Positions 3,461 through 33,418 of a stretch of 48,777 nucleotides of DNA are shown piece by piece (the stretch's first letter is position 1; every line of letters begins with the position of its first letter). The DNA is from an uncultured bacterium. GTDB lineage: Bacteria > Patescibacteriota > Minisyncoccia > Minisyncoccales > JAQTVQ01. Where the stretch lies: positions 1 to 48,777 of the forward strand of contig CAIMDX010000020.1 of NCBI GenBank assembly GCA_903839905.1, read 5' to 3'. The notes below the pieces were generated by a model that saw nothing but the letters and a program-made list of their open reading frames with translations, was not told the DNA's origin and did not search any database. A program made the position numbers and the translations under genes.

Positions 3461-3495
3461 AAAATTTTTCAATTGTATTTCCGATATCAGCATGC

Positions 3496-4545
3496 TTAAA
3501 TCTTCTTTTTTAGGATCAATTTCCGGTAAATTTCTTCGTATCCTTCGGTCATCTTTTCCGATGTAAAAAATCTCTCCACTCTTTTTCTGCAATCTGCCCT
3601 GCTTATATTGCTTATCCCTCTCACCGCGCTTAAAAGCTGCGCTTCATTATCCGCCACAAAGCCTGTCTCGCCGTTCTTTATTATTTCAGGAGCCGATCCT
3701 AATTTGTTGGTTATAACAGGAGTGCCGCAAGCCATAGCTTCTATAAAAAACAAACCGAAGGGCTCCCTCCATTGTATGGGCGCCAAAAGAGCCCGCGCAT
3801 TCCGCAATAATTTCACTTTATCGTTATGCCCCACTTCTCCGATAAAACTTATCTGCTTCCCGTCTATCAAAGGCTTCACTTCCTTCGTAAAATAACTATT
3901 ATCCACTGCATCAACCTTGGCCGCCATCACCAGTTTTATACCGGCTTTTTTGGCCAGTTTTATCGCCTGGACCGGACCTTTCTCCGGCGACATCCTTCCT
4001 AAAAAAGCAAAGTAATCCCCGCCCTTATCGGAATATTTGAATTTCTTTATATCTATTCCGTTATAAACCGTACCGGCATAATTCAACTTTTTTAGAGGAA
4101 CTCGCTGGCTATTTGATATTGAAACATAGTTAGAAGATGCATAAGCGCCATAGACCAGCTTCTGATAGTCGGGATCCAGTGGACCATGAAGAGTTGTTAC
4201 GCAGGGAGCTCCAAAAAAAGCCGCGAAAGGAAGAAGCCTCCAGCCTATATGGTTATGAATAATATCCGCGCCTGTATTTTTTAACAGCTCAAGCACCTTC
4301 CCGATGCCCATATACTTCAACGCATCCCTTGCCCTCATATCCTGCGTGCTCGGATATCTTCTTAGCGATTTGGGGAATACTGGAAGCAATTTTGCATCGC
4401 TTCGGGAATCGCCCGAGGCTATAAGATGCACTTCGTGCCCTTTGCGGACCAGCTCTTGAGTCAAATTATAAACTACCAATTCCGTTCCCCCGTATTTTTT
4501 TGGAGGCACCGATTCTTCAAACGGAGAGATTTGTATGATCTTCAT
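3496..4545 (-). CDS. Glycosyltransferase family 4
   Basis: 349 aa. GT-B fold hallmarks: N-terminal GG.E and C-terminal EPFGL..IEAMACGTPVI (EX7E region). Confidence 0.8.
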   Translation of the reverse strand: MKIIQISPFEESVPPKKYGGTELVVYNLTQELVRKGHEVHLIASGDSRSDAKLLPVFPKSLRRYPSTQDMRARDALKYMGIGKVLELLKNTGADIIHNHIGWRLLPFAAFFGAPCVTTLHGPLDPDYQKLVYGAYASSNYVSISNSQRVPLKKLNYAGTVYNGIDIKKFKYSDKGGDYFAFLGRMSPEKGPVQAIKLAKKAGIKLVMAAKVDAVDNSYFTKEVKPLIDGKQISFIGEVGHNDKVKLLRNARALLAPIQWREPFGLFFIEAMACGTPVITNKLGSAPEIIKNGETGFVADNEAQLLSAVRGISNISRADCRKRVERFFTSEKMTEGYEEIYRKLILKKKI

Positions 4546-4546
4546 T

Positions 4547-5827
4547 TTATTTTGATTCGCCGGTTATTAACGAATTATAAATTACGGCTATTTTTTCCGT
4601 AACATTCTGCCAAGAATAATTTTTTGAAATTTCTTCAAACGCATTTTGGACAAGCACTGAAGCCAAGCTTTCAGATTTGTACAGCTCCATTATTTTTTCC
4701 TGCAAAGACAAAGCGTTGCGCGGCTCAAAAAGCAGTCCTGTTTTTCCGTCTTTAATGGTAATTGCAAGACCGCCGACACTTGAAGCGATTACCGGCACTT
4801 TGCTGGCCATACCTTCCAAAACGACAAGCCCGAAAGGTTCATAATAAGAAGGAACAACAAAAACATCCGCCGACCGGTAATAAGCGGGAAGGCGGCCGTG
4901 GTCCATACTGCCGGCAAAACTTAAAATGTCCCCCACTCCCTCCTCTTCCGCTTTCTTTTGCAGCCTTTTATATTCTTTAAAGTCTGCGGCATTGATGTCC
5001 CGCCCGAAAATTTTCCCGCCGACTATTAAAATTTTCAAGCCGGTGATTTTTTCACGCAACAAACGGGCCGCGCTGATTATTGTTCCTATTCCTTTTCGCC
5101 ACTCAAGCCGTCCCACAAAAAGGATAACAAACGATTTTTTATCCAAGCCCAAAGTATCGCGCGCCTTCTCTTTTTCAATCAAGGGCCAATGTTTTACATC
5201 CACTCCGCCCCGGATCACTTGCACTTTCTCTTCCGGACAGCCGTAAAACTGGATCAAGCTTTGTTTTTCCGACTCGGCCAAGCTGATAATAACGGAAGAA
5301 TTTTTAATGATCTCTTTTTCCATTTCTGTCCTGCTTTCAACATAAGAGTTATCTACGCTTCCGTTATCCAAAAATCTTTTTTTTGTTTCCACCCTTACAA
5401 TTCCTATTGAATGAAAGTTTTGGACAAAAGGCTTTTGGAATTTTTTAAAAGCTTCAAGGGCTACCGCTCCCCCGTCCCAGTAATGTCCATGGAATAGAAT
5501 ATAAGGATTTTCAAAATTGATAAAATGGAGAAAATTATCAAAAATCTCCGGCAAAAAAGAAAAGAGTTCTTTTTTCGGCACATAGCCAACAGGCCCTCCC
5601 TTCAGCCTGATCACTCGGCTGTTTTTGGAAATACGCGCGATCTGATTCTTGCGGGGATTATCCAGGCGAGTAAAAATATCCACTTCCCAGCCTAGCCTGC
5701 CCAGCTCTTCAGCCAGATACCTGACATAAATATTCTGGCCCCCGCTTTCCTGGCTGCCCAGCGATGCAAGAGGATCGGAATGAATACTAAACATCGCAAT
5801 TCTTTTATGATTCTCTTTTTGTTCCAT
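4547..5827 (-). CDS. Glycosyltransferase family 4, sucrose-phosphate-synthase/MshA-like
   Basis: 426 aa. HSDPLASLGSQESGGQNIYV near the N-terminus and EPFGLVVLEGMASKVPVIAS near the C-terminus. Its stop lies 1 nt from the start codon of the downstream GT4 gene. Confidence 0.8.
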   Translation of the reverse strand: MEQKENHKRIAMFSIHSDPLASLGSQESGGQNIYVRYLAEELGRLGWEVDIFTRLDNPRKNQIARISKNSRVIRLKGGPVGYVPKKELFSFLPEIFDNFLHFINFENPYILFHGHYWDGGAVALEAFKKFQKPFVQNFHSIGIVRVETKKRFLDNGSVDNSYVESRTEMEKEIIKNSSVIISLAESEKQSLIQFYGCPEEKVQVIRGGVDVKHWPLIEKEKARDTLGLDKKSFVILFVGRLEWRKGIGTIISAARLLREKITGLKILIVGGKIFGRDINAADFKEYKRLQKKAEEEGVGDILSFAGSMDHGRLPAYYRSADVFVVPSYYEPFGLVVLEGMASKVPVIASSVGGLAITIKDGKTGLLFEPRNALSLQEKIMELYKSESLASVLVQNAFEEISKNYSWQNVTEKIAVIYNSLITGESK

Positions 5828-10190: not shown

Positions 10191-11003
10191 TTAATCTGAA
10201 AAGCTAAAAGTGGAAAGTATTTGATTGAAAATTGAATAATTATCTTTGATGTTTTGGTCATTAAGAAATTGATATGTGTTTATATATTCTGCAATTTCGT
10301 CATATGGCTTATCTATATCAAAAAATACCAGATTCGGACTACTAATCAAAATGTTTGTAAATACAGGCCCATCTAAGGGGATTAGTATTGTCTCTTCTAC
10401 GCATTGTTCGGAATAAGAATTTATCCGGAAAAAACGAACCGAAGCCTTACCTCCGATTGGTTGGCGTTGCATTTTTAAGATAGAACCTCCTCCCTTTCCT
10501 AATTGCGAGTTTATCTCCTTCTGCAGCTCATTATCAGTTAATGTTAAATCTATCTTTTTTCCGGCATAGGAGAAACAGCAACCTTCGCCAACTCCTTGGC
10601 TATAGTCAGGTGAAGTGGCTTGAATGGTAACGGAAAAATTTTGGTCTAAATTTTGGATTGTTATTGTTCTCATCTGACCTGAGTCAAACCCTTTCATTTC
10701 TTTTCCTTCGCTCACTTTATAATCTTCTGGATATCTAAATTCTAAATTAATCTCATCATTCCGATAAGTTTTCCAAGTGGCATCGTCTACTGTTCCTGAG
10801 GGGCTCTCTACAACTTCTCCTCTGCCCTGATTCCTTTCTAACGCCTTTTGCTGCTCTTGCTGCTGACTTTGAGTAAATATTTCTGCTGATTTTTTATCAA
10901 AATACTGTTGGTATAAAAAAATGCCGGTCCCTGCCAGGACAGCACAAACAGCAACAATGCCTAAATATTTAACATTAGTTTTCCCTTGGGTGATGAAAGG
11001 CAT
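10191..11003 (-). CDS. Signal-anchored hypothetical protein (paralog family MPFITQGKTN...)
   Basis: 270 aa. The N-terminal 38 aa (MPFITQGKTNVKYLGIVAVCAVLAGTGIFLYQQYFDKK) are near-identical to those of the 208-aa neighbour. The rest is unrelated. Confidence 0.7.
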   Translation of the reverse strand: MPFITQGKTNVKYLGIVAVCAVLAGTGIFLYQQYFDKKSAEIFTQSQQQEQQKALERNQGRGEVVESPSGTVDDATWKTYRNDEINLEFRYPEDYKVSEGKEMKGFDSGQMRTITIQNLDQNFSVTIQATSPDYSQGVGEGCCFSYAGKKIDLTLTDNELQKEINSQLGKGGGSILKMQRQPIGGKASVRFFRINSYSEQCVEETILIPLDGPVFTNILISSPNLVFFDIDKPYDEIAEYINTYQFLNDQNIKDNYSIFNQILSTFSFSD

Positions 11004-11192: not shown

Positions 11193-11819
11193 TTAATTAA
11201 AAACAATATTTTTTATTACTTTTCCGATTTCAACATCTGTTAATGTAGTTACATAAAATATTTTTTGATGTTCGGCAAAATAATAATAATAATTGGCCGG
11301 ATCTCCTTCGACTTTTATTTTATATCCAGAATATCCGTAAATGCTCACTTTTTCTTTTTCGTCCCAATATAAAAAACCGTACTCTTTATTCATTTTTTCC
11401 ATCCATTGATCCAATGTCAAATTGTCCAAGTTGTCTTCGGAAAAAATACTAGCTATCGAAGGGCATAGGACGCAATGATTAATTATCCCCTCTTTCCCAT
11501 AAAAATCCGCCGCTCCCGCCTCATTTGTTCTGACAACCAGATATGGAAGAATACTTATTTCGTATCCTCGGGCAATATTTTTGATAATTTTCTCATCGGT
11601 CTTCACTTCAATGCTCGCACCTGCAGGCAAAATATCTTTTATGTCCTGATCTTTTAAAACATCTACTGATTGATCGTTTGCAGATGATTGATAAACTATC
11701 TCTGTCTTTTTATCTAGATCCTGCTGGTATAAAAAAATACCTGCCCCGACAAGGACAGCTACAATTAAAACAATGGCTAAATATTTAAAATTGGTTTTTC
11801 CTTGAGTGATAAAAGGCAT
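11193..11819 (-). CDS. Signal-anchored hypothetical protein (paralog family MPFITQGKTN...)
   Basis: 208 aa. It shares the N-terminal anchor with 10191-11003 but has a divergent extracytoplasmic domain. Confidence 0.7.
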   Translation of the reverse strand: MPFITQGKTNFKYLAIVLIVAVLVGAGIFLYQQDLDKKTEIVYQSSANDQSVDVLKDQDIKDILPAGASIEVKTDEKIIKNIARGYEISILPYLVVRTNEAGAADFYGKEGIINHCVLCPSIASIFSEDNLDNLTLDQWMEKMNKEYGFLYWDEKEKVSIYGYSGYKIKVEGDPANYYYYFAEHQKIFYVTTLTDVEIGKVIKNIVFN

Positions 11820-11973: not shown

Positions 11974-12336
11974 TCACAGGCCTGCCAAACCCAAGCTAAT
12001 CTCTAAGGATTGGTTAACTTTTTCCATTAAAGCCGAATCAAAAATCGCCAGTTTCTTCACTAAACGCTGTTTATCTATCGCCCGAATTTGATTAAGTAAA
12101 ACCACACACCTCTTATCCAAATCGCTCTGTTTGGCCTCCACAAACACCTCGGTCGGATAAATCCGCTCGCCAATCTGGGAAGTAATCGCGGCCACAATAG
12201 TTACAGGGCTATAGCGGTTTGCAATATCATTTTGAATAATCAAAGCTGGCCTCGTTTTTTTAATTTCCGAGCCAATAGTCGGATCAAAATTAACTAAATA
12301 AACCTCGCCTCGTTTTGGAATTATTTGCTTGGGCAT
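11974..12336 (-). CDS. mazF: Type II toxin, PemK/MazF-family endoribonuclease
   Basis: 120 aa. RGEVYLVNFDPTIGSEIKKTRPALIIQND and VTIVAAITS are the classical MazF/PemK core. Confidence 0.88.
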   Translation of the reverse strand: MPKQIIPKRGEVYLVNFDPTIGSEIKKTRPALIIQNDIANRYSPVTIVAAITSQIGERIYPTEVFVEAKQSDLDKRCVVLLNQIRAIDKQRLVKKLAIFDSALMEKVNQSLEISLGLAGL

Positions 12337-12599
12337 ATCTCATCATCAATTAAAAACCACTCTTCTACCAAATTCAAGTCCCGCGAAGCGTTAGCCATCG
12401 CCCCCTCTTTTAGCTGCTTTCTTAAATTAGCCTGGCTCATTTCCTTTGCGAAATAGCGAATCGCCTGGTCAACTAACCGGCTCCTGTCTCCTCGCTTAGC
12501 AATCTTTTCAAGCAATTTAACTGTTTCTTTTGGAAGAGTAATGTCTATCCGTTGATAAGTTGTAGAATTGTTTTGGGTTTCCATATTCTTATTATACAC
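12321..12599 (-). CDS. Ribbon-helix-helix (CopG-like) antitoxin
   Basis: 92 aa. IDITLPKETVKLLEKIAKRGDRSRLVDQAIRYF fits an RHH fold. It overlaps the toxin start by 16 nt. An alternative start is at 12584. Confidence 0.7.
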   Translation of the reverse strand: MYNKNMETQNNSTTYQRIDITLPKETVKLLEKIAKRGDRSRLVDQAIRYFAKEMSQANLRKQLKEGAMANASRDLNLVEEWFLIDDEICPSK

Positions 12600-16117: not shown

Positions 16118-17650
16118 TTACTTCGCGTATTCGGTTATTCTCAACTCCCTGATCACATTTACTCTTATCTCTCCTGGATATTTTAATTCTTCCTGTATCT
16201 TTCTGGCAATATCTTTAGCTAGTTTATGAGCAGCCAGATCGTCTATCTCTTCAGGCTTTACAAATACTCTAATCTCCCTTCCCGCCTGAATGGCAAAGGC
16301 ATTTTTTATGCCGGAGAAAGAAGTGGCAATCCCTTCAAGCTCTTCCAATCTTTTCAAATAATTTTCCAAAGTGTCTTTGCGCGCGCCTGGCCTGGCTCCG
16401 GAAATCTGATCAGCTACCTGGACGATAATGGCCTCAATTGATTCGTAAGGATATTCCTCATGATGCGATTTCATCGCCGTAGCAATCTCTTTATCTATCT
16501 TAAATTTCTCAAGAATCTTAACCCCAATATCAGTATGCGACCCTTCTACTTGCCAGTCAAGGGCTTTGCCGATGTCGTGCAAGAGCCCGGCCTTCTTACA
16601 GACCGCAATATTCGCGTCCAATTCGGCGGCCAAAGCGCCTGCCAAGCGGGAAACTTCCATTGAATGCAATAATACATTTTGACCGTAGCTAGTGCGATAA
16701 TGAAGCCTGCCAAGCAGCTGGATAAGTTTTTCCGGAAGGTCCAGAACATCTGTATCATAAACCGCGGCTTCTCCGGCTTCTTTTACTTTTTTGGCAACTT
16801 CGCCCTGCGCCTTTTCTATCTCCGCTTCAATGCGGGCTGGCTGGATGCGGCCGTCTTTAATCAATCTTTCCAAGGCAACCTTGGCTATCTCGCGCCTAAC
16901 TGGATTGAAGCAAGACACAATAACTGTTTCCGGCGTTTCATCAACGATCAATTCAACGCCGGTCATTTTTTCCAAAACACGGATGTTCCTCCCCTCTTTG
17001 CCGATAATCCTTCCTTTAATTTCTTCCGACGGCAGCGAAATAGTACTGGTAGTCATCTCTTGCGATTGCGGCAAAGCAAACCCTTGAATGGCATGCGCTA
17101 AAATTTCTTTGGCGCGCTTGTCAAACTGCTCCTGTCCCCGGGCTTCAAGTTTTCTTATTCTGGCCACAACATCAACTTGATATTCTTTTTCAATTTTCTC
17201 CAAGAGTTCGTTTTTGGCTTCTTCCTGCGAAAGATTGGCAATTTGTTCCAAGCTTTTAATAGCCTCTTGCTTCAAAACTTCCACGCTTTCCTTTATTCCT
17301 CTGACTCTGTCTACTTTCTGGATCAACTCTTTTTCTTTCCTTTCAAAATCTTGGTGCTTATTCTCCAAAAGCTCTTCTCTTTTTAAAAGAATGTTTTCCG
17401 TCCTGATAATAGATTGCTGGCGGTTATCCAAGTCAGCAAGAACTTTTCTCTCTGTTTTTTCGGCTTTTTCAGAAGCCCTGGCTAAAATATCAGCAGCTTC
17501 TTTTTTGGTTTGGATAAGCTTCTCTTGAAGCTTAGCCTCTATTGAGCCTGCTCTTCTGCGAGCGATAGATTGGCGGACATAATAGCCCAGGACAGAACCT
17601 GCGGCCAATGCGCCAAAAATCCCTAAGGTTGTTAGGAATAGCGAATTCAT
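16118..17650 (-). CDS. rny: Ribonuclease Y
   Basis: 510 aa. N-terminal TM helix, long coiled coil, KH domain (GRIIGKEGRNIR) and HD domain (LLHDIGKA). Confidence 0.92.
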   Translation of the reverse strand: MNSLFLTTLGIFGALAAGSVLGYYVRQSIARRRAGSIEAKLQEKLIQTKKEAADILARASEKAEKTERKVLADLDNRQQSIIRTENILLKREELLENKHQDFERKEKELIQKVDRVRGIKESVEVLKQEAIKSLEQIANLSQEEAKNELLEKIEKEYQVDVVARIRKLEARGQEQFDKRAKEILAHAIQGFALPQSQEMTTSTISLPSEEIKGRIIGKEGRNIRVLEKMTGVELIVDETPETVIVSCFNPVRREIAKVALERLIKDGRIQPARIEAEIEKAQGEVAKKVKEAGEAAVYDTDVLDLPEKLIQLLGRLHYRTSYGQNVLLHSMEVSRLAGALAAELDANIAVCKKAGLLHDIGKALDWQVEGSHTDIGVKILEKFKIDKEIATAMKSHHEEYPYESIEAIIVQVADQISGARPGARKDTLENYLKRLEELEGIATSFSGIKNAFAIQAGREIRVFVKPEEIDDLAAHKLAKDIARKIQEELKYPGEIRVNVIRELRITEYAK

Positions 17651-17992: not shown

Positions 17993-18014
17993 CCGCGGAA
18001 TATCCGCGGCTTTT
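17993..18014 (-). terminator. Rho-independent terminator of the surface-protein operon
   Basis: The minus strand reads CCGCGGA-TAT-TCCGCGG followed by TTTTT, about 45 nt after the stop at 18057. Confidence 0.7.
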
Positions 18015-18056: not shown

Positions 18057-21000
18057 TTAAAAAGGCGAGGTCTCCTTCCATCTCGGGATAGGCTGGACAA
18101 CATCAATAGAGCCATAGCCGCCGCAGCAGGATCCTGTAACATTAAGTTTTACTGTCTTGCTCTTTCCTGTAGTCTTGAATTTGACCAAAGGATTAGGAGA
18201 AATAGCCGAAGTGCTGCTTTGGAATTCATAATTTTCCGGCGCAATTCCTGGGAAATACCATGAATATTGAGTCCCTGAAACATTTTGGCAAGCTTGTTTC
18301 TGATTGGAGGAATTATAGCAAACACTGCACTTCCAATACCCTGCCGAATCGCCGACTTCCGGAGTGGAACCTTCTGGCCCTGTCCAACAGGTTGAATAGC
18401 AAGGATCCTCTTCGTTATTTATATCGGCTGTAGTGCAAAACATCACAGTGTTGCCGGAAGTTAAAACTTTTTTATTCCAAGCTATGTTAACAATCGGATA
18501 ATGCTTTACGGGAGTGGAAAGCGACGATAAAGCTTTGGTCCATCCGCTGCAAGCCGCATTATCTTCATTGCAAACTTTAACCCACCAATTATAGGTTTGG
18601 CTGTAAGCCAATTCATTTACTCCGGGGTTAATTTTAACTGGAATCTGCTGGGTGATCTCCGAACCGGAATTCTCTGTTCTGTTTGTCCAGCTTTGATCAA
18701 CCGCCGGGTTTGGAGCATCAACATTGCTAGAAGTTGAAATTCTCATATAATAAGTTTCTAAATGCTTCCCTACCGGACTGGTTGGATCGGTATATGTCCA
18801 TTTAAAAGGAACAGCTCCATTATTTCCCGTTTCTAAGCTGTTGCCATTGGATGCATTAAGCCAATAGCTGCAATAGTTGGAAGAGTCTTCTTCAGGCGCA
18901 ATCAAACCAGTGGCAGACGGACCGCTGGTAATTCCGCAAACGCTGCTGCCGCAAGAACCGCTATAACATTCTTCCGCATTAGAACAAGAGCAGCCGTTCG
19001 CTTTTTTAATAGTGAATTTTTGAGGTTCTATTTTAGTGGAAAAGTTCCAGGCAACCTCCACATCTTCCGGCTGGGCCGCACCTTTCAAAACCTGGACAGG
19101 GGAAAGGTAAATACTATTAGGGGCTCCTTTCCCGAGCTGGCCGTCGCCATTACTTCCCCAACACCAAACTGTTCCGTCGGATTTGACGGCGCAAGAATGA
19201 GTGTACCCTGCCACCACCTGTTCCACCCCGGTCAAAAAGCCGGAGCCGCCTACTCCCTTGACTTGAACCGGGATATAAGAAGTGGTGGTGGAATTATTGC
19301 CAAGCTCCCCGAGTTCATTATATCCCCAACAATAAACCGTACCATCTGACTTGACAGCGCAAGAATGGAGGCTGTCTCCCGCAGATTGTATCACTCCTGT
19401 CAGATATCCCAAGCCGCCAACCCCTACGACTTGGACGGGAACTTTGGAATCGGCATTAGAATTATTCCCAAGATTACCGTAATAATTATATCCCCAGCAC
19501 CAAATTGTACCGTCAGTTTTTACAGCGCAAGAATGGCTTCCCTGTCCCGATATTTGAGCTACATCTGTCAGGTAACCGGCCCCGCTCGCACCTTTGACTT
19601 GGACCGGGACATAAGAAGTGGTAGTGGAGTTGTTGCCGAGTTCTCCGTAATAATTCCGGCCCCAACAATAGACCGTGCCGTCTGATTTAACGGCACAGTT
19701 ATGTGCGATTCCCGCTGTTACCTGTTCAACCCCAGCCAAAAAACCGGAACCGCCAACACCCTTAACTTGGACGGGAGTGTAAGAATTAGTGGTAGTATTA
19801 TTCCCAAGCTGGCCGTAAACAGCATTAGATCCCCAGCACCAAACCGTGCCGTCGGATTTTAACGAACAGGCATGAGAATCCCCTAGAAAAACATGCTCCA
19901 CTCCTGTCAGATATCCCGAACCGCCAACGCCAAGGACTTGGACAGGAACCTTGGAATCGGTTGTAGTCCCATTCCCAAGAGTGCCGGACCCGTTGTATCC
20001 CCAGCAATAGACTGTGCCGTCGGATTTAACGGCACAAGCGTTGGACACCCCGCCATCGGCCTGGATCATATCCGTCAAATAGCCTAATCCACCTAAGCCA
20101 AAAACTTGGACAGGAACCCAAGAGTCGGTAGTTGTATTATTGCCAAGCTCTCCGTAATAATTCCGGCCCCAGCAATAAACGCTTCCCGATCCAGAAACGG
20201 AGCAAGAGTCTCTATTGGATCCTGCTGCGATATCAATAATGTTCGCCAAATTAAGTCCCGATCCCCCGGACCATCCCGACCAATCATAACCGTCAAAAAC
20301 CCTGGCTCTCCAATAATACTTATTGCCATAAGGAAGATTGTTAGCCGAGTAACTAATATTTGAACCGCTGGGCCAAGAGCCGGCGTAATTACTCTCGTTA
20401 ATCACAGTTGAAGTGAAAGCGCTTGATGTGCTGACTTGCAAGTCAAACTTAGTGCACAAATCGGCATCAGGGTCGCTGTAGCTAAATTCAATATTCAAAC
20501 TAGAGTCAGCTTCTTCCATCCCGCTCTCTGGCGCAACCAACAAAGGAGTTGTTGGAATTTGATTAGGAGTTACAAAATTCCATGAACCATCGGACCATAA
20601 AGACCAATCGGTCCCGTCAAAAATCCTGGCTCTCCAGTAGTAATCAGTATGAGCCGCTAAATCAGACGCTAAAGCATAAGGAATTGTTGCGCCGCTGGCC
20701 CATGATCCCGCATAATTTTGAATGTCAATTAATGGCGAATCAAAAAATGGCTGGTCATTAATTTGCAGATCAAATCTTGTGCAGCTGTCGCCATTGGGAT
20801 CAGAGCAGGAAAATTGCAAGGCTGGCTTTAAACTGTCTACTGTAACGCCATTAGACGGAACAACTAAAGTCGGGGTATTTGGCGCAAGATTAAGCGTTGT
20901 GAAATTCCACGAACCGTCGGACCAAGATGAATAACTGGTACCGTCAAAAACCCTGGCTTTCCAATAATATTTTGTATTGTAAGACAAAAGGGTTGAAGCA

Positions 21001-21956
21001 TTATAACTAATAGTTGAACTGCTTGGCCAGGACCCGGTAGATCCGGATACATTTATTTCCGGCGAAGAAAAATTGGAATTATTATCAACCATCAAATCAA
21101 ACTTCGTGCCATTATCACCGTTAGGGTCAGAATATCCAAATTGAAAAGTAGGGAGCAACGGCACCCCAACAGTACCGTTAGAAGGAGCAACTAATGCAGG
21201 AATATTGGGAGAAGGATTGGCAGACTCATAAGTAAGTTTCAAGCTCATCACTTGAGCAAAAGCGCTTTTCGTGGTGGGAGCATAGCAATCCTGGCCAACG
21301 CCGCAACCGGTACAGCTATCGCAATAGCCGGCATAAGTTCGCGCTACACCAGTGCTGCGGACATAGTTGCCTCCTGCGCCCGCCCAAACGCTATCATTTC
21401 TATAAGCTTCTATTAATAAATTGCTGGTACCGTCCCAAGTAAAAGGCGTGGTCAAGGTATGGCATTTCCAAGCCCCGGCAGCCGGCCTCGCGTAAGTTGT
21501 CGGCCCGTAGACAGTGGTCAAGCCGGTAGTTGTAAAATTTGCAAGAGAAGTTGAGGTCGTATTTTTCATTTTTATCCTCATATTGACGATATTGGTCGTA
21601 CCGGGAAGAGCGGAACATTGAAAACAAACTTCGGAGATAGTAGACGATCCTCCAAGACCGGCTGCTTCCAAATCTGATTTGAGATAAATGGATTGGGCGA
21701 TAGAATCATGATAATAAGTGTTGAAAGGAGCATAGCTAGTTGCCCAAGAGCTTGAAGCGGAACCGGTTAAAAGCTCAACGGTGGTGGTAGACGCCGCTTT
21801 TGCAATCGGAACTTCTAATTTTTTAGATCCAAAAATAAATAGAACAGATACGGCTATTAAAACAGTTAAAATAGAAAGAATAGAAATTTTAACCAACCCT
21901 GACATATTCGTTTGATTTTTAAATAAAGTGTTTTTCATTTTTATTCTATTTGCCAA
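18057..21956 (-). CDS. Giant modular secreted protein: 3 FN3-like modules, 7-blade RCC1-like propeller and a shared C-terminal module
   Basis: 1299 aa with an N-terminal signal anchor. Three copies of a ~95-aa module (PxFxFxYSDP[DN]GD..KFDL...YYW[KR]ARVFDG..WS.WS.GSWNFTT). Seven C[AS]VKSDGTVYCWG.N..G.LGN blades (about 19070-20260). A Cys-rich linker, then a FN3-like/PKD-like module ending in PIPRWKETSPF. An 11-nt overlap with the upstream gene disappears if the start is MKNT (21938). Confidence 0.85.
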   Translation of the reverse strand: MANRIKMKNTLFKNQTNMSGLVKISILSILTVLIAVSVLFIFGSKKLEVPIAKAASTTTVELLTGSASSSWATSYAPFNTYYHDSIAQSIYLKSDLEAAGLGGSSTISEVCFQCSALPGTTNIVNMRIKMKNTTSTSLANFTTTGLTTVYGPTTYARPAAGAWKCHTLTTPFTWDGTSNLLIEAYRNDSVWAGAGGNYVRSTGVARTYAGYCDSCTGCGVGQDCYAPTTKSAFAQVMSLKLTYESANPSPNIPALVAPSNGTVGVPLLPTFQFGYSDPNGDNGTKFDLMVDNNSNFSSPEINVSGSTGSWPSSSTISYNASTLLSYNTKYYWKARVFDGTSYSSWSDGSWNFTTLNLAPNTPTLVVPSNGVTVDSLKPALQFSCSDPNGDSCTRFDLQINDQPFFDSPLIDIQNYAGSWASGATIPYALASDLAAHTDYYWRARIFDGTDWSLWSDGSWNFVTPNQIPTTPLLVAPESGMEEADSSLNIEFSYSDPDADLCTKFDLQVSTSSAFTSTVINESNYAGSWPSGSNISYSANNLPYGNKYYWRARVFDGYDWSGWSGGSGLNLANIIDIAAGSNRDSCSVSGSGSVYCWGRNYYGELGNNTTTDSWVPVQVFGLGGLGYLTDMIQADGGVSNACAVKSDGTVYCWGYNGSGTLGNGTTTDSKVPVQVLGVGGSGYLTGVEHVFLGDSHACSLKSDGTVWCWGSNAVYGQLGNNTTTNSYTPVQVKGVGGSGFLAGVEQVTAGIAHNCAVKSDGTVYCWGRNYYGELGNNSTTTSYVPVQVKGASGAGYLTDVAQISGQGSHSCAVKTDGTIWCWGYNYYGNLGNNSNADSKVPVQVVGVGGLGYLTGVIQSAGDSLHSCAVKSDGTVYCWGYNELGELGNNSTTTSYIPVQVKGVGGSGFLTGVEQVVAGYTHSCAVKSDGTVWCWGSNGDGQLGKGAPNSIYLSPVQVLKGAAQPEDVEVAWNFSTKIEPQKFTIKKANGCSCSNAEECYSGSCGSSVCGITSGPSATGLIAPEEDSSNYCSYWLNASNGNSLETGNNGAVPFKWTYTDPTSPVGKHLETYYMRISTSSNVDAPNPAVDQSWTNRTENSGSEITQQIPVKINPGVNELAYSQTYNWWVKVCNEDNAACSGWTKALSSLSTPVKHYPIVNIAWNKKVLTSGNTVMFCTTADINNEEDPCYSTCWTGPEGSTPEVGDSAGYWKCSVCYNSSNQKQACQNVSGTQYSWYFPGIAPENYEFQSSTSAISPNPLVKFKTTGKSKTVKLNVTGSCCGGYGSIDVVQPIPRWKETSPF

Positions 21957-24900
21957 TTACATTAGAACAAGCGTTATCATTGCAAGCTTTTGCCCAATAT
22001 TCGCTGTTGGCGCAATAACGGCAATTTGTTTCGCCGCTGCCACAGGCAGGAGTTGAAGCAGAATCATAAATTGCCGAAGGATTGCCTACTACACCGATAG
22101 TTGAATAAGCCCAACAACTGGAAGTGGAATTAAGGCCGCAGTTACTGCAAGCGGAATTTTTGCAAACGAAAAGTTTTATAAAGTCGCCGTTAGGATCTGA
22201 AGCCGTGGAATTGAAAGTTATATTTTGTCCGCTTTTGCAAACAGTCGTACTGCCTTCTGTTTTGCAAATATTCGGGTTGCTGGTGTTAATAAAAATTGAA
22301 GTAATGGACGGCGGCTGGGTGGTTGTAAAATGCCAAGATCCGCTTGACCACGGCGACCAGGCGGCGCCATCAAAAATCCTGGCCTTCCAATAATAAATTT
22401 TATTGGTGTCTAAAAGGCCAGAAGAAACCTGATAAGAAATGGCCGAACTAGTCGCCCAAGGGCCTCCGTTAGAATAATCCGTCTCGCTTATTATAACGGA
22501 AGAAAAATCGGAGTTGTCGTCAACTTTAAGATCAAACTTAGTACAAGGATCATCGTCCGGATCGCTGTATGAAAATCTCAAAATAGGAGAGAGAGCAACT
22601 CCCGTAGCGCCATCAGTCGGCTCAACAAGGGTCGGAGTGTTCGGAGAATGGTTGATTCCGGTTGTAAACAAATTCGGTTCGGACCAATACGACCACCCGT
22701 TGGCGTTGGCAACCCTCGCTCTCCAATAATATGTAGTATTTCCCGACAGATATGAAGAAGAATCGTAGATAATCGTTGAACCATTAGTCCAAAGGCCGCC
22801 GTGGTCAATTTCATTTATAGCCAACGAAGAAAAATCAGTTGAAGTACTTACCTGCAAATCAAATTTAACTCCATCCGCCGCGTTGGGATCGCTGTAGCCA
22901 AATTGAAAAGTGGGCAACAAAGCGACACTGGTAGACCCGTTCGGAGGAGAAATAAAAGTCGGCATGTTCGGCGCGTCGCCCAAATAAGCGACAATGCCTT
23001 TCCCGCCGTTGCCATAGCCTCCATAAGTGTAACCTATAAAAGCATGTTTTGAACTTAAGACCGTGGGCGAATACCACTCATTATAGAGCGAAGAAAAAGT
23101 ATATTTTGCGCCAAAGTATATCTTGTTACTGGATACTGCGGCTACAATAGCAACGCCCGAATGTATGGAATTTTCATAATTGCTGTAAGCGATCAGAACA
23201 TGGTCTGGATCAAGGGCAACGGCCGAAGGACTTACTTCCTGATTGGGAGCGAATATCTGATCGGGGCTAAAATTAATCTCGGTACCGGAAATATTGGCGA
23301 TACGGGCAACGCCGTTAGCCGGTTCAGATGATCTCTGATAAACGACCATTGCGCGGGTAGCGCTCAACGATGTTATGGAGACATTAAATATCTGATAGTC
23401 CCATATCTTGTATTTCGGACCGTAACTTATAGTGCTGGTGCCTGTTATCTCAAGCGTTCTGCCGTAACTGCCTCCTTCATCAAAGCCCTGATAAACGACT
23501 ATACCATGGGTGGAGTCAAGAACAGCCGAACCAAGACCCGAGTTGGTATGTCCCGCAAACGGATAAAAATCCCCATAAGAAATCACATTGCCCAATACAT
23601 TGGCGACCATGCAAGAGGAACTTGCACTGTCAAATGATATCAAAACGCTGCTCGATGAAATCTTAGAAGCATGAATGTCGGGAACTGAAGAAGATGAGAA
23701 AACGTATTCTGGGCCGTAGGTTATGGTTGTTCCGGTGATAGTGGCTATGCGGCCGCCGGCCAATCCGTCCCTCATGTAAGCAACGAAAACATGGGTTGAA
23801 TCAAGAGCAGTCGCTGATATATAGGCAGTGCCGTTCGTCCCTGTCCCGGAAAAACTGACTGCCGTTCCATAAACAGGAGCGGTACTTGTGGAAACAGTAG
23901 CGACAACTCCCATCCCCGGCCCCGGATTATTATTGGCGGCATAGGCAATAAAAACTTTCGTTGAACTGAGAGGCGTCGCGGAATTATACATAGCATAGCT
24001 GCTTATTGTAGACGACGCTGTATATTTCAAATAATAAGCCCCCGGAATCACCGCCGGAGTCCCTCCCGAATAAGTGGCGTACGAAGAATACCTGACGGTA
24101 GAGACTACGGCACCATCTGTCGGGTCAACAGGAGAAGAATAACTGTTGGTCGCGCTTAAATAAGCAGCGTCGGAGATACCGTTATCACAGGCTACCGCCA
24201 AATTTAATGATCCAACATCTGCGATTACTCCCAAAAAATAGGTAGAGTTATCTGCAATAGACGGAGGAGTGCCAAAAACGCTGTCTATCCAGGAATAAGA
24301 CGATCCAACCACAGCGCCCGTGCCTATGCCATTAGATATAAGCTTCTTGTTACTATTGGCAATGGCCGCCTTATAATTCAGAGTCCCGGAATAATCTTCT
24401 TTTGCATATAAACTTATTTTACTGATAGTCGCGCCATTTGAATCTGTCGGAGTCACCACCCTAGATCCGCGATAATTATTGCCTGACAGCCAGCAACTAC
24501 TCGCGCCTATTCCGCTATAGCCGAAGATTGGGTCAATGTTGATCGGGTAAACGGCCGCTTCTAAAAAGTCTTGCGGAACGGTTATGGAAAACTGGTTCTC
24601 TTTTTCATTGATGCTCAAAGTTCCCCAAACCTTTTTCCCATTAGCATCGGAAATGCTCGGCCTGTAAATATGAAAGACTTTTCCGGCTTTGTAATCTTTG
24701 CCTCCCGACTCGGTGTAGTCTCCCGACTTGCTCCCTTCATAATAGACAGCGTAAGAACCGATGACATTTTCCGGCCTGTAATTCACAACCTTGCCATCGC
24801 TATTCTGGCAAGTTGTTTCAGTGCACTCTGTACCATCGGACTGTTCTCCTTGATTTAATGGAGGCTGGTAATAAAACTCCAAGCCTTTGGATTGCATCGG

Positions 24901-25488
24901 ATAGAATATCTCGTTGCTTTCCGGTCTTTCGTAAAGAATAGTATCAAACTCTACTCCTCCCTCTTCGTTTATCGTATAAACGCTTTCTTTTCCGCTGGCG
25001 TCTTTTTCGGATATCTGCTCCGGCTGGCGCGGATAAAAAGCGACTTCCATCTTGGATGCGGCATCAACTAGGCCGATAGAGGCGAAAAGCGGTTTCAATG
25101 TATCCGCAGTCTTATTAGAAAAAGTGAGTTTCTCTCCGTCAAAGTTCGGCTTTGATCCGGAGATGTTCGGGAAACTAATATTCAAAAAAACCTCTCCGTC
25201 CCATTTGTTAAGTTTCAAATAAGGCTGGCTGTTCTGATCACTATTACCTATTTCTATAAGATCATTGTTTAAAGTTTTAAAAGAATATTTATTTAATGCT
25301 GTTTTCGCTATTTTCAATTGCTCTACCTCGGAAAAATTCTCTTTTATCCGTCCCCCGTTCTGAACCAAATAAAAACCTGCGACGAAAACTGCCAGCGAAA
25401 CAAAAAACAAACCAATCTTGGCTTTGCGAGGCAATCTTTTGATTTTTTCTTTAAGGCCGACTTTTATTTTCATTTCTGATAACGACAA
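21946..25488 (-). CDS. Giant signal-anchored protein with a 7-repeat region and 2 FN3-like modules
   Basis: 1180 aa with a TM anchor near residue 30. Seven ~50-aa repeats with the pattern I.YG..Y.F......s..aLds.h.lvaY.......G...a. Two copies of the module found in the 1299-aa protein. Cys-rich C-terminus. Confidence 0.85.
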   Translation of the reverse strand: MSLSEMKIKVGLKEKIKRLPRKAKIGLFFVSLAVFVAGFYLVQNGGRIKENFSEVEQLKIAKTALNKYSFKTLNNDLIEIGNSDQNSQPYLKLNKWDGEVFLNISFPNISGSKPNFDGEKLTFSNKTADTLKPLFASIGLVDAASKMEVAFYPRQPEQISEKDASGKESVYTINEEGGVEFDTILYERPESNEIFYPMQSKGLEFYYQPPLNQGEQSDGTECTETTCQNSDGKVVNYRPENVIGSYAVYYEGSKSGDYTESGGKDYKAGKVFHIYRPSISDANGKKVWGTLSINEKENQFSITVPQDFLEAAVYPINIDPIFGYSGIGASSCWLSGNNYRGSRVVTPTDSNGATISKISLYAKEDYSGTLNYKAAIANSNKKLISNGIGTGAVVGSSYSWIDSVFGTPPSIADNSTYFLGVIADVGSLNLAVACDNGISDAAYLSATNSYSSPVDPTDGAVVSTVRYSSYATYSGGTPAVIPGAYYLKYTASSTISSYAMYNSATPLSSTKVFIAYAANNNPGPGMGVVATVSTSTAPVYGTAVSFSGTGTNGTAYISATALDSTHVFVAYMRDGLAGGRIATITGTTITYGPEYVFSSSSVPDIHASKISSSSVLISFDSASSSCMVANVLGNVISYGDFYPFAGHTNSGLGSAVLDSTHGIVVYQGFDEGGSYGRTLEITGTSTISYGPKYKIWDYQIFNVSITSLSATRAMVVYQRSSEPANGVARIANISGTEINFSPDQIFAPNQEVSPSAVALDPDHVLIAYSNYENSIHSGVAIVAAVSSNKIYFGAKYTFSSLYNEWYSPTVLSSKHAFIGYTYGGYGNGGKGIVAYLGDAPNMPTFISPPNGSTSVALLPTFQFGYSDPNAADGVKFDLQVSTSTDFSSLAINEIDHGGLWTNGSTIIYDSSSYLSGNTTYYWRARVANANGWSYWSEPNLFTTGINHSPNTPTLVEPTDGATGVALSPILRFSYSDPDDDPCTKFDLKVDDNSDFSSVIISETDYSNGGPWATSSAISYQVSSGLLDTNKIYYWKARIFDGAAWSPWSSGSWHFTTTQPPSITSIFINTSNPNICKTEGSTTVCKSGQNITFNSTASDPNGDFIKLFVCKNSACSNCGLNSTSSCWAYSTIGVVGNPSAIYDSASTPACGSGETNCRYCANSEYWAKACNDNACSNVIGK

Positions 25489-25554: not shown

Positions 25555-26961
25555 TTAAAACGGAGAAGTTTCTTTCCACCTCGGGATAGGTAGATTAGCG
25601 TTTAACAGTTTGCTCCCGCTGCAACTGCTGGAGCCGGTGGTAATATCAAGCCCCACTTCCCTGTTCTTGCCAGCTGTTAAAAATCTGATTTGAGGATTGA
25701 CGGATACGGCCGTACTGCTGACGAATTCATAGTCTCCTGTGGTCATACTCGATAAGTCCCAGATATAGGATGATCCGACTTCTTGGCAGGCTATATAGTT
25801 ATTTGAAGAGTCAAAGCAAACGCTGCAAGCCCAACTCGGATTGTCCGGGCTTACTATCACGGGAGTAGTAGATGTCGTCCAACAAGTTGAATAGCATGGA
25901 TCGTTTGGATTGGCGACATCAGCCGTAGAGCAAAATTGGACTGTCTCGCTTATAGAAATTGTTTCCTTATCCCAAGCAACCCTGGCTATGGGATAATGCC
26001 TTTCAGGCGTGGAAAAATTCGGACCCTGGGTCCAATCGGAACAAGCTCCGCTCTGATTGCATACTTTCACCCACCAATAATAGGTAGATATATTGTAAGA
26101 AAGCTGATTCGCTCCCGGTATAATCTTTACCACAATCTGCTGGGTGGTTGTACTATTCACGGGATCGTTGCGGCCGGTGATTGACAAGTCAACTGCCGGA
26201 TTCGTGTCACTGGCATTGCCGGTTGTATTTACCCTAAATTGATAATTATTTAAAGAACTGCCGCCCGGGTCTTGATACAACCATTCAAAAGACGCGCTGT
26301 CGCCGCAATAATTTGCGGAGATATTGGCTGGAGGAGTTAGATTGGCGACTGTGGGAGTTGAACCCGCGAGATGGACATGATAATCAATAGTGCCACAAGA
26401 GCTGCGATTGCTGCAATTGAAGCTTAGCCAACCGATAACTCCAGCGGAAACAGCATTAGCCGTATTCCCTCCCCACGCCCAGCCGTATAATTCCTTGGTT
26501 GAATTATTCATAGCAACGCCATAAGGAGTTGAGCTGGCGTCGGTTGCTGTTCCGTTTAATTTTATCCATCCGTCCCAGCCGCTGGCTGAAGAAGAAGCGG
26601 CCAAGGCTCTGGCCCAGCCGGAGATAGCATAAGTACTATTAGACATCCTCGCCTCGCAGGTACCTGACGGACAGCCGGCCAAATCGGCAGAATTAAAACT
26701 TATCCATCCTATATCTTCCGACCAAGCTTGGCCGGACAATAAACCGGTTAAAGGATTTTTGTCCACTCCGTAATCAACGGTTGAACTTGTATTTTTACAG
26801 GAAAAACTTATCCAGCCGGCATTCTCCGACCAGGCCCAGCCCAAAAAACTGTGATCAGTGCAAGCAGCGCCGGAAATGAAAGAAGAGCTGCCAAGCCAAA
26901 AACCAATCCCAAAAATAACGCCCAAACCTAATAAAATTACCTTTTTGGCTGGGAATTTCAT
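25555..26961 (-). CDS. Secreted protein with GWxW..N.GWISF repeats and the shared C-terminal module
   Basis: 468 aa with a signal peptide. Four GW[AS]WSE[ND].GWISF[NS]-type repeats. The C-terminal ~250 aa are collinear with the C-terminus of the 1299-aa protein and end in PIPRWKETSPF. Confidence 0.85.
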   Translation of the reverse strand: MKFPAKKVILLGLGVIFGIGFWLGSSSFISGAACTDHSFLGWAWSENAGWISFSCKNTSSTVDYGVDKNPLTGLLSGQAWSEDIGWISFNSADLAGCPSGTCEARMSNSTYAISGWARALAASSSASGWDGWIKLNGTATDASSTPYGVAMNNSTKELYGWAWGGNTANAVSAGVIGWLSFNCSNRSSCGTIDYHVHLAGSTPTVANLTPPANISANYCGDSASFEWLYQDPGGSSLNNYQFRVNTTGNASDTNPAVDLSITGRNDPVNSTTTQQIVVKIIPGANQLSYNISTYYWWVKVCNQSGACSDWTQGPNFSTPERHYPIARVAWDKETISISETVQFCSTADVANPNDPCYSTCWTTSTTPVIVSPDNPSWACSVCFDSSNNYIACQEVGSSYIWDLSSMTTGDYEFVSSTAVSVNPQIRFLTAGKNREVGLDITTGSSSCSGSKLLNANLPIPRWKETSPF

Positions 26962-29461: not shown

Positions 29462-29743
29462 CTATGCCGACAGGGCCCAGTAAAGAAGTCTGCTAATGTA
29501 ATAATTGGAATCCTGGTTGTCGTAAAGAACGGAGGTGTAGATACCAGAGGAAGCTGTTAATATTCCGGTGACGGTCAAAGCTCCTGCTTTGGTCTGGCCG
29601 GTTCCGCTGACATTGACCGGAGCCGAAACATTCCCGTTCGGCGGAGCGACAGTTGGTTCCTGCCAGGCGGCAAGAATAAAGCTGGCGGCAAGGCTTATTG
29701 TTATGACGCTGGCCGATAAGAGGATTGGTTTTAAGCTTTTCAT
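29462..29743 (-). CDS. Signal-anchored 93-aa protein, possibly the detached N-terminus of the 810-aa protein
   Basis: Signal anchor MKSLKPILLSASVITISLAASFILAAW followed by a Gly/Thr/Ser-rich segment. Its stop lies 2 nt before the ATG of the next ORF, which is in the -1 frame. Confidence 0.6.
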   Translation of the reverse strand: MKSLKPILLSASVITISLAASFILAAWQEPTVAPPNGNVSAPVNVSGTGQTKAGALTVTGILTASSGIYTSVLYDNQDSNYYISRLLYWALSA

Positions 29744-31230: not shown

Positions 31231-31824
31231 TTAAATATTTGCATCCTTTGTCTTTATCACTTCGTCTATCACGCCGTATTCCTTGGCTTCTTCCGCGGTC
31301 AGATAAAAATCTCGGTCAGTGTCTTTTTCTATCCGTTCTAACGGTTGTCCGGTATGCTTGACTAAGATTTTATTCAACCTGTCTTTAAGCTTCAGGATCT
31401 GTTTGGCCGTAATTTCTATTTCCGATGCCTGTCCGGTTACTCCGCCAGCCACTTGATGCAATAAAATCTCGGCATTAGGAAGAGAGTATCTCTTGCCTTT
31501 TTGGCCTGCGGCTAATAAAAATCCTCCCATGGAAGCGGCCATGCCAACGCAAACCGTTGATATTTCAGGCTTCACATATTGCATTGTATCGTAGACAGCC
31601 AATCCGGCAGTTACCGATCCGCCAGGGCTGTTAATATATATCTGAATGTCTTTCTTGGGGTCTTTTGACGCCAAAAACAACAACTGGGCGATAATGGAAT
31701 TAGCTAAAGAGTCGTTGACCGGCCCGGACAAAAGAATAATCCGGTCGCGCAAAAGCCTAGAGTATATATCGTAAGCCCTTTCGCCGGATTGGGTTTTTTC
31801 AATGACAGTTGGAATTAGGTTCAT
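31231..31824 (-). CDS. clpP: ATP-dependent Clp protease proteolytic subunit
   Basis: 197 aa. [20 protein letters not shown] (Ser nucleophile) and LLHQ (His) are canonical. Confidence 0.95.
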
Positions 31825-32161: not shown

Positions 32162-33418
32162 TTATAGTCCTAAGGCTTTAAACGCGTTCTCCTGCTTGAT
32201 CTCGTCTTCAACATAGGCCGAAAGCTTCTCCAGGCTGGCTCCTTTTTCAGCGGCTTTAAGGTCGGGATAATAGCTTAACATCGCGTTCACCCTTTCTTCT
32301 ATTTGTTCGGCGCTGGCCTCGGTTTTTTCCTGTTTGGCAATTTCGCGCAAAATCAAAAAGTTTTTTACGCGCTTTTTAGCCGCCTCTTCCACCTCTTTTT
32401 CAAAATCAACCTCGGTTTTGTTGATCTGTTTAAGATATTCTTCAAAGCTTATGCCTAAATTCTGCGCAACCTGGTCCTTGGCGCTGTGCATCATTTGATG
32501 CGCCTCTTTCTCTATTAATATCTGAGGCAATTCAACCTCAACTTCTTTAGCAATTTCAGTCAAAAAATTCTCTCTTTGCCTTTGAATCTCGGCCATCTTT
32601 TTTTCTTCCATAATCCCCTCTTTGATATTATTCTTTAAAGCCTCAACAGTCTCAAATTTACCCAAAGTTTTAACAAATTCATCATTAACTTCCGGCAATT
32701 CAAGCTTTTTAACAGCTTTCATCTCCACTTTTACCTTTAATATCTTGGCAGGCTCTTCTTTGGAATTAAAATCAACTTCTTTTGATTCATCGGCAGACAT
32801 TCCGACCAGGCTAGCTTCAAACTCCTTGGGATAATTGCCTTTGCCTAAAATAAAGCCGTCATCGCGGGGCTTTCCCCCTTCAATTTCCGAGGAAGAAAAG
32901 CTGATTTCAACAAAATCCTCGTTTTGAGCAGGCCCTGCTTTATCGGTCAGAGTCGCTCTGGACTTTTGAATATTAGAGACAGTTTCCTCTATTTCTTTGT
33001 CTTCAACTTTAATTTCTTTTTTCTCAACCTTTTGGGCAATGGCTTTGTATCCAGGCAATTCAAATTCCGGCATCGCTTCAAACTCAGCTGAAAAAAGAAG
33101 TTCGTTCTCTTTGGCCAGTTTTAACAGCTCTATTTGGGGCTGGGAAACCACCTCTATCTTCTGCTGGGCCAAATCTTTAATAGCTTTTGGCCAAAGGTCA
33201 TCAATAGCCAAAGTAGCTGCTTCAATTAAAAGTTTTTCCGGATCCAAACTGGCTTCAATCATGGTAATCGGAGCTTGACCTTTGCGAAATCCCGGCAATT
33301 CAATTTCTTTACTAAGGCTGAAAAGAGCCTTTTCGTAAAAAGACTTGAATTCGTCCCAAGCCTGCTCAACTTCTATTTTGACTTTTATCTTCTTATTCTC
33401 TTTAATTGTCAGTTTCAT
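32162..33418 (-). CDS. tig: Trigger factor
   Basis: 418 aa. N-terminal ribosome-binding motif GFRKGQAP. Acidic helical C-terminal domain. Lies upstream of clpP. Confidence 0.9.
   Translation of the reverse strand: MKLTIKENKKIKVKIEVEQAWDEFKSFYEKALFSLSKEIELPGFRKGQAPITMIEASLDPEKLLIEAATLAIDDLWPKAIKDLAQQKIEVVSQPQIELLKLAKENELLFSAEFEAMPEFELPGYKAIAQKVEKKEIKVEDKEIEETVSNIQKSRATLTDKAGPAQNEDFVEISFSSSEIEGGKPRDDGFILGKGNYPKEFEASLVGMSADESKEVDFNSKEEPAKILKVKVEMKAVKKLELPEVNDEFVKTLGKFETVEALKNNIKEGIMEEKKMAEIQRQRENFLTEIAKEVEVELPQILIEKEAHQMMHSAKDQVAQNLGISFEEYLKQINKTEVDFEKEVEEAAKKRVKNFLILREIAKQEKTEASAEQIEERVNAMLSYYPDLKAAEKGASLEKLSAYVEDEIKQENAFKALGL

Follow-up and report, generated by a model that had tools for sequence, protein, structure and literature searches.

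A conserved C-terminal tail on exported Ig-domain proteins of Minisyncoccales as a candidate docking tag for the type IV pilus tip

Two exported proteins ending in the same undecapeptide

The subject of this study is an undecapeptide, PIPRWKETSPF, that forms the C-terminus of two exported proteins encoded in a 48,777-nucleotide stretch (hereafter, the window) of contig CAIMDX010000020.1 from an uncultured bacterium (GCA_903839905.1; GTDB lineage, Patescibacteriota; Minisyncoccia; Minisyncoccales; JAQTVQ01; 81 contigs, 779 kb; GC content, 41%; completeness, 94.5%). Both open reading frames (ORFs) lie on the reverse strand. The larger protein, P0001 (1299 residues; 18057–21956), consists of a signal anchor, three Ig_Rha78A_N/FN3-like modules, a seven-repeat RCC1 β-propeller, a Cys-rich region, FN3-like and PKD-like modules, and the tail (18060–18092), followed by a TAA stop codon (18057–18059); its Pfam matches are PF25390 (E-value, 5e-100), PF00415, and PF25788. 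The propeller spans approximately residues 580–960, corresponding to window positions ~19080–20220. The smaller protein, P0002 (468 residues; 25555–26961), is composed of a signal peptide, a Trp-repeat module (GWAWSEN.GWISF), FN3-like and Cys-rich PKD-like modules, and the tail (25558–25590), likewise followed by TAA (25555–25557). The model of P0002 built by AlphaFold2 (AF2) from an alignment of 74 sequences (mean predicted local distance difference test score (pLDDT), 89; predicted template-modelling score, 0.73) shows an N-terminal β module followed by FN3-like and PKD-like sandwiches. The last strand comprises residues 445–456, and residues 457–468 are modelled as a coil, in which the pLDDT falls from 95 to 85 (~85 at residues 461–468). 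A Foldseek search with this model retrieved only tandem Ig/FN3/PKD proteins and no PilY1.

The C-terminal ~300 residues of P0001 and P0002 are homologous (44% identity; E-value, 2e-63, in BLASTP), with 48.8% identity over 283 aligned columns. This common module, made up of the FN3-like and Cys-rich PKD-like domains, was delimited by BLASTP and alignment to approximately residues 991–1299 of P0001 (18060–18986, reverse strand) and 183–468 of P0002 (25558–26415, reverse strand). A preliminary description of the window, in which the identical tails had been recognized, stated that the sequences diverge just upstream of them; this holds for the adjacent 8–9 residues, the only part of the module devoid of identity, but not beyond. 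It had also named conservation extending uniformly upstream, as in a globular domain, as an argument against a separate tail; although the homology does reach ~300 residues upstream, the conservation is far from uniform. Among the 273 windows of 11 columns, the tail is the sole one with 11/11 identity, and a single further one reaches 10/11; at a background identity of 44–49%, an 11/11 window is expected by chance with a probability of ~1e-4. As previously noted, the two tails differ at six of the 11 third codon positions (AGA/AGG, AAG/AAA, GAG/GAA, ACC/ACT, TCG/TCT, and CCT/CCG) with no amino-acid replacement, and the codon differences at identical residues are as frequent in the tail (6 of 10 degenerate positions) as elsewhere in the alignment (62 of 119). 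The tail therefore dates back as far as the remainder of the duplication, with no recent conversion; as proposed at the outset, it has been kept by selection acting on the protein. In our reading of the window sequence beyond both stop codons, no conserved extension that could arise by read-through was found.

Consensus, position, and distribution of the tail

The distribution of the tail was surveyed with a profile of 26 columns built from 12 tails (match threshold, E ≤ 0.1), which was used instead of an exact DNA pattern that proved too strict (6 of 61 genomes matched). From ~200 distinct tails, the consensus is L(47%)-P(71%)-L(76%)-P-x-W(89%)-[K(45%)/R(19%)]-E(95%)-[I(57%)/V(20%)/T(8%)]-x-P(89%)-F(42%), directly followed by the C-terminus. 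The distance from Glu to the C-terminus is 1–6 residues in 158 of 201 tails and exactly four in 110; the motif lies within the last ~12 residues of its carrier, a Sec-exported protein other than a pilin. In 74 diverse homologues of P0002 only seven columns are invariant, and four of them belong to the tail (Pro460, Trp462, Glu464, and Pro467); the Lys and Arg of PRWKE, included in the motif given in the preliminary description, are not among them. No internal copy of the motif was found in the 87,880 residues of 158 family proteins, and the linkers that separate internal PKD-like domains are devoid of it. In all cases, the tail comes after the final strand of a PKD-like Ig domain. By AF2 and Foldseek this tail-bearing domain is an Ig-like sandwich, and its form varies between the canonical PKD and an expanded, Cys-rich one. 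When tested against the PKD models (PF18911/PF00801), the carrier at locus L080 scored 41.5 bits with PKD_4, that at L039 fell below the cut-off, and P0002 and four others gave no match.

The search of this genome and its relatives revealed a recurrent C-terminal tag. Four carriers are encoded in the genome: P0001, P0002, and two on contig C17, identified as six-frame ORFs, which end in ...VIPLPRWKELPPFK and ...VVALPGWKEISPF. Orthologues of P0002 end in LP[IL]P[KRV]W[KR]E..P[FY]. Within the same order, 117 of 201 genomes matched the tail profile, usually with one to four matches per genome, and in ~145 genomes of the phylum outside the order essentially nothing, and nothing convincing, was matched; this exact version of the tail is thus specific to the order. 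A profile search for the P0002 family among 1.84 billion representative proteins (E ≤ 1e-3) yielded 8197 representatives, and in 124 of the best 150 a P-x-W-x-[ED] motif is found near the C-terminus, most of the others having Phe or Tyr in place of Trp. Nearly all carriers are signal-bearing proteins: 131 of the 136 that start with Met (~96%) have an N-terminal hydrophobic export signal.

About 80% of the members are short forms, which end 1–6 residues beyond the Glu. In the other 16–20%, here called long forms, the chain continues after Pro-(Phe) with an amphipathic stretch of 17–30 residues. This stretch is not hydrophobic enough for a transmembrane helix: with one very short exception, its Kyte–Doolittle hydrophobicity (19-residue average) stays below 1.6, and its hydrophobic moment is mostly 0.35–0.9. 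In the AF2 model of one long form, P0111, the tail (residues 411–420) is a coil with a pLDDT of 84, followed by a helix at 75–80. Because the long forms occupy the same chromosomal slot as the short forms, adjacent to the gene for RNase Y (rny), the helix is an optional addition. The statement in the preliminary description that the tail is followed by no hydrophobic helix thus stands for P0001 and P0002 but not for the family as a whole. The helix is loosely conserved, for example as ..[ST]GWL.K[FL]LA.I..FF (loci L019/L081, L021/L083, L025/L087, L026/L088, L029/L091, L031/L093, L033/L095, L058/L113, L059/L114, and L076).

A membrane-anchored protein of 324 residues encoded elsewhere in the genome (contig C19, 7949–8923, reverse strand) ends in ...DNDLLWKEIEVK. 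It has a W-K-E-I core seven residues from the C-terminus, with neither the LPxP prefix nor a PKD domain, and may represent either a chance occurrence or a second type of carrier.

Relation to known C-terminal tags and pilus-tip proteins

The closest counterpart of the tail is the so-called plug of PilC/PilY1, of which the last 10–12 residues insert at the interface between PilJ and PilK and extend the β-sheet of PilK, and on which tip localisation and piliation depend, the plug being also largely sufficient for both; a PilK–PLUG crystal structure is available, and this coupling of plug and pilin was described in 2026 for Proteobacteria (PMC12918778/PMC13533445, 10.64898/2026.09.18.752573, PMC13711793). 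In PilC/PilY1 tails, Arg, Glu, and hydrophobic residues come after a conserved Trp, and the Trp and the aliphatic residue have been shown to matter (PMC13711793). Using the PF05567 model, we detected PilY1 in 11 of 14 proteobacterial genomes, and the positive ORFs from these 11 environmental beta-/gammaproteobacterial genomes end in ...SWRQLQ, ...SWRELMN, ...GWRQLK, ...AWRELMGVDE, ...SWRQVK, ...SWRELL, and ...RWYELSALK. By inspection, a core of W-basic-E/Q-aliphatic located 3–6 residues from the C-terminus is common to these tails and to the tail described here, in which the corresponding frequencies are 89% (Trp), 64% (Lys/Arg), 95% (Glu), and 77% (Ile/Val). The chance of finding such a core at a random C-terminus is ~2e-4, as estimated from residue frequencies.

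In both systems, a short motif forms the very end of a large protein that is exported by Sec and is not a pilin, and this motif is far more conserved than the body that bears it; several paralogous carriers may be encoded in one genome (cf. PilC1/PilC2), and the genes are situated either inside the minor-pilin operon or apart from it. In contrast, the bodies consist here of Ig/FN3/PKD tandems instead of the PilY1 β-propeller, the tail has an LPxP prefix and a Pro-Phe end, some members add the amphipathic helix, and the binding to a pilin is only predicted. As no PF05567 match was obtained in P0001–P0004 or in the genome, the carriers are not members of the PilC/PilY1 family. In the literature that we found on PilC/PilY1 plugs and on the pili of Patescibacteria, there is no mention of such a tail.

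There is precedent for unrelated large proteins encoded beside minor pilins, namely, MshQ of the MSHA pilus and CpaL of the Tad pilus, which are predicted or shown to use a C-terminal strand on a PilK-like pilin (PMC12918778); they belong to protein families and lineages different from those of the carriers studied here and are likened to them by description. In the GspK-type minor pseudopilins of type II secretion the corresponding strand is provided in cis, whereas the carriers would supply it in trans from a non-pilin protein, filling the same position in the tip complex. Neither a pilin with the tail in cis nor a fusion between a pilin and a carrier was found among the 150 representatives and five extra loci inspected. 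The RCC1-type seven-bladed propeller of P0001 also occurs in PilX2 of Nanosynbacter lyticus TM7x, an RCC1 β-propeller pilin with a pilin-like "lollipop" shape that has been proposed as an adhesin of the T4P-2 pilus (PMC11623550), but P0001 is not built like a pilin: it starts with a plain signal anchor and ends in the tail.

Two further proteins join pilin sequences to the kinds of modules found in the carriers. A canonical prepilin (KGFTLIELLLV...) encoded on contig C70 of this genome (1–660, reverse strand) is fused to RCC1-type repeats, recalling PilX2, and runs off the end of the contig. In P0059 (651 residues), retrieved by the profile search for the P0002 family, a prepilin N-terminus (MKGFTLIELV...) is joined to a Trp-repeat module (GW.WSE..GW), and the FN3, PKD, and tail regions are lacking. 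Judging from its sequence, P0059 may be a fusion in which a pilin domain takes over from the tail the task of tethering this head to the pilus; it is a single example, and may be truncated.

The tail also resembles the tripartite sorting signals (LPXTG/sortase, PEP-CTERM/exosortase, and PGF-CTERM/archaeosortase) in being a short, conserved motif at the C-terminus of exported surface proteins, to which a minority of the members add a hydrophobic segment. Unlike these signals, however, it lacks a transmembrane helix and a basic tail in ~80% of the members, and it has no conserved cleavage dipeptide and no matching family model. No sorting-signal model was detected by Pfam and NCBIfam scans, whether run on the full-length proteins or on the isolated tails, and three tails gave no NCBIfam match to PEP-CTERM, PGF-CTERM, GlyGly-CTERM, other NCBIfam sorting domains, or the T9SS C-terminal domain, even at E ≤ 10. 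The initial judgement that the tail is not an LPXTG, PEP-CTERM, or T9SS signal is borne out by these scans and by the different anatomy of the signal.

Pilus genes and gene context of the carriers

The genome encodes a type IV pilus system on contigs other than the window. Contig C68 contains a partial pilC, two major pilins, pilD, and four minor pilins (2849–3421, 3417–3971, 3976–4632, and 4619–5059), the fourth of which lacks Glu5, as do the GspK/PilK-type pilins, and contig C7 carries genes for a histidine kinase, a response regulator, PilB, PilC, and pilins.

In 10 loci of other genera (L002, L039, L042, L044–L046, L064, and L067–L069), a carrier gene is directly followed, in the same order and direction, by orthologues of minor pilins 1, 2, and 3 of this genome (E-values, 1e-16 to 1e-32). 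In all three of these loci whose coordinates were inspected, the first pilin ORF adjoins the carrier ORF or overlaps with it; the five pilin ORFs scanned (from L068 and L069) are all PF07963-positive, and in L064 pilD is located upstream of the carrier. In this genome, pilD directly adjoins minor pilin 1 on C68, leaving no large gene in the slot that the carrier takes elsewhere. A looser linkage is seen in 15 further loci, arranged as tig–clpP–(fibre-like gene)–carrier–rny–(hup)–histidine kinase–response regulator–pilB–pilC–pilin. As the window has the same gene frame next to rny, P0001 is the positional counterpart of the carriers in those 15 loci; the island between clpP and rny has been expanded in the window, and the pilB block has been moved to C7. 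Genetic linkage of the plug type is thus present in 10 other genera, looser in the 15 loci, and absent in this window and genome. Unlinked pilC genes are known in Neisseria and Kingella (PMC13711793).

Proposed docking at the pilus tip and alternative explanations

The reading that we favour, to which we would give about an even chance, is that the tail, although borne by non-PilY1 bodies, serves like the PilC/PilY1 plug to dock its carriers at the tip of the type IV pilus. The undecapeptide would be the genus version of the tag L-P-L-P-x-W-[K/R]-E-[I/V]-x-P-F, set at the free carboxyl terminus behind the last PKD-like domain of Sec-exported, adhesin-like proteins throughout one large order. 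We infer both the binding partner and the mode of strand addition: the tail would dock in the manner of the last 10–12 residues of PilC/PilY1, and the partner in this bacterium would be the fourth minor pilin on contig C68 (4619–5059). The different bodies, among them the P0001 propeller of RCC1 repeats, the Trp-repeat module of P0002, and those of the two C17 carriers, would then serve as interchangeable host- or surface-binding heads on the pilus tip. In this proposal, the need to fit one common pilin would be what keeps the P0001 and P0002 tails identical. The earlier designation of the tail as a new sorting, anchoring, or processing tag appears too broad, since the kind of device is probably known and only the proteins that carry it are new; a co-occurring protease or transpeptidase, for which a search had been suggested, is not needed to explain the tail.

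Such docking would bear on how host-dependent ultra-small bacteria recognize and hold their hosts. Type IV pili are needed in the one well-studied cultured case (PMC11623550). They are near-universal in the group, and the search of the present genome detected no PilY1 domain. Should the tail indeed plug into the pilus tip, candidate tip adhesins could be listed for each genome of the order from a 12-residue pattern (four in the present one, including the RCC1-propeller and Trp-repeat proteins), the question of how the host is held would become directly testable with peptides and recombinant minor pilins, and the plug-and-pilin coupling of Proteobacteria would extend to a deeply divergent, monoderm-like lineage on unrelated protein bodies.

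We tentatively put forward a broader scenario, somewhat less probable than docking itself, in which the order has dispensed with the PilY1 propeller and kept the logic of a ~10-residue plug as a portable tag, LPLPxW(K/R)E(I/V)xPF. Any exported Ig-domain protein could thereby be mounted on the tip of the type IV pilus, whether a lectin-like Trp-repeat head, an RCC1 propeller, or a giant multi-domain protein, and the several carriers of one genome would compete for one tip complex, giving rise to host or surface specificity. The optional amphipathic helix might extend down among the bundled N-terminal helices of the pilins, or it might keep the adhesin membrane-bound as long as the tip complex has not yet formed.

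Several observations weigh against docking at the pilus tip. The similarity to the PilY1 tails is confined to a core of four residues, or 4–5 shared residues at most, and the tail profile gives no score to genuine PilY1 tails; the plugs of different systems are stated to have little sequence conservation (bioRxiv 10.64898/2026.09.18.752573). The candidate strand is only ~6 residues long and flanked by prolines, against the strand of 10–12 residues in PilC, and the plug is reported to be unstructured, with very low confidence, when modelled alone, whereas AF2 gives the present tail as a coil with a pLDDT of ~85. The helix that follows the motif in the long forms indicates that a free C-terminus at that point is not obligatory. 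The window contains no pilin gene, and the block from the carrier through rny to pilB includes housekeeping genes and may represent mere inherited gene order, which makes it a weaker argument than the minor-pilin context. Nor does the lack of any PF05567 match in the genome lend much support, because the control genomes were also silent in this search, although the model did detect PilY1 in the 11 proteobacterial genomes mentioned above.

Among the alternatives, an envelope retention or docking tag for a receptor outside the pilus (a protein anchored in the membrane or bound to the wall, or else the surface of the membrane) survives best, although we consider it unlikely. The helix of the long forms would be embedded in the outer leaflet, and the Trp and Phe of the short forms would provide a weaker interfacial binding or address a dedicated receptor. 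In its favour are the amphipathic stretch, which starts directly after the motif in ~16–20% of the members and is predicted as a helix by AF2, the occurrence of long and short forms in the same rny-adjacent slot, and the location of most carriers, both of those in the window included, away from pilin genes. Against it, the helix is absent from most members, and it leaves unexplained both the W-K/R-E-aliphatic core common to the PilY1 tails and the operon coupling to minor pilins 1–3 in 10 genera; moreover, no candidate receptor gene co-occurs in the loci read.

Slightly less probable still is a purely intramolecular role, in which the tail would act as a proline-flanked cap or latch, its Trp and Phe packing onto the last PKD-like domain and stabilising it with no partner involved. 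The fair confidence of the AF2 models in both the short form (P0002) and the long form (P0111) and the invariable position of the tail behind a PKD-like domain are consistent with such a cap. Yet the tail is more conserved than the domain to be capped, contributing four of the seven invariant columns, and that domain itself varies from the canonical to the Cys-rich expanded form. In these proteins the motif is missing from every internal PKD-like domain, its position 3–4 residues from the C-terminus is itself conserved, and the pilin-operon context is left unexplained.

A signal for a sortase or another protease or transpeptidase, by which long forms would be cut after Pro-Phe and short forms would be genetically "pre-cut", is very improbable in spite of the two sortases in the genome, the combination of motif and hydrophobic segment in the long forms (some reading ..APTG..), and the ending of the short forms where the cut would fall, because the residues after Pro vary (TG, FG, VG, VS, IS, FI, LF, and AS), the extension is amphipathic and not a transmembrane helix with a basic tail, no NCBIfam sorting-signal model matches, and a protein already ending at the cut site, as do ~80% of the members, cannot form the sortase acyl intermediate. 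An LPXTG-type sortase signal was accordingly rejected on the anatomy of the signal and not on the absence of the enzyme.

Neighbouring genes and other features of the window

The island that holds the two carriers consists, in order, of tig, clpP, a 195-residue ORF, a 93-residue ORF, P0004, P0002, P0003, P0001, rny, and hup. The synteny anchors, all on the reverse strand, are tig (32162–33418) and clpP (31231–31824) upstream, named from sequence, and rny (16118–17650), named from sequence and length; in most of the 40 loci taken with wide flanks, the tail carriers adjoin an rny homologue. Between the two carriers lies the gene of P0003 (1180 residues; 21946–25488, reverse strand), an exported protein without the tail (it ends in ...ACSNVIGK). 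The P0003 gene overlaps the start of the P0001 gene by 11 bases, and its product has Ig_Rha78A_N/FN3-like modules and a Cys-rich end; P0003 may be a partner or a decayed carrier.

Upstream of P0002, the gene of P0004 (27027–29459, reverse strand) encodes a fibre-like protein of 810 residues with NTA.G-type repeats and no tail. Homologues of P0004 are encoded immediately upstream of a tail carrier in L081, L087, L093, L101, and L114. The 93-residue ORF (29462–29743, reverse strand) encodes a signal anchor and then AWQEPTVAPPNGNVSAPVNV. It runs 4 bases into the beginning of the P0004 gene, with which it makes up either a single gene that has been split or a pair of coupled genes. An N-terminal module similar to that of the 93-residue ORF (FQTPTAVPPGANVATPIN) is found just upstream of the carrier in L064, within the operon of pilD, carrier, and minor pilins.

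Between the stop codon of P0001 and rny, a GC-rich perfect palindrome (CCGCGGAATATCCGCGG; 17993–18009) with T-runs on both sides forms a terminator-like hairpin, which is followed by a promoter-like site on the reverse strand (17967–17939). Elsewhere in the window, two adjacent exported paralogues (10191–11003 and 11193–11819, reverse strand) start almost identically (MPFITQGKTN[VF]KYL.IV...) and diverge in their bodies, and an overlapping gene pair (11974–12599, reverse strand) resembles, by sequence, a MazF/PemK-type toxin (120 residues) and a small antitoxin (92 residues).

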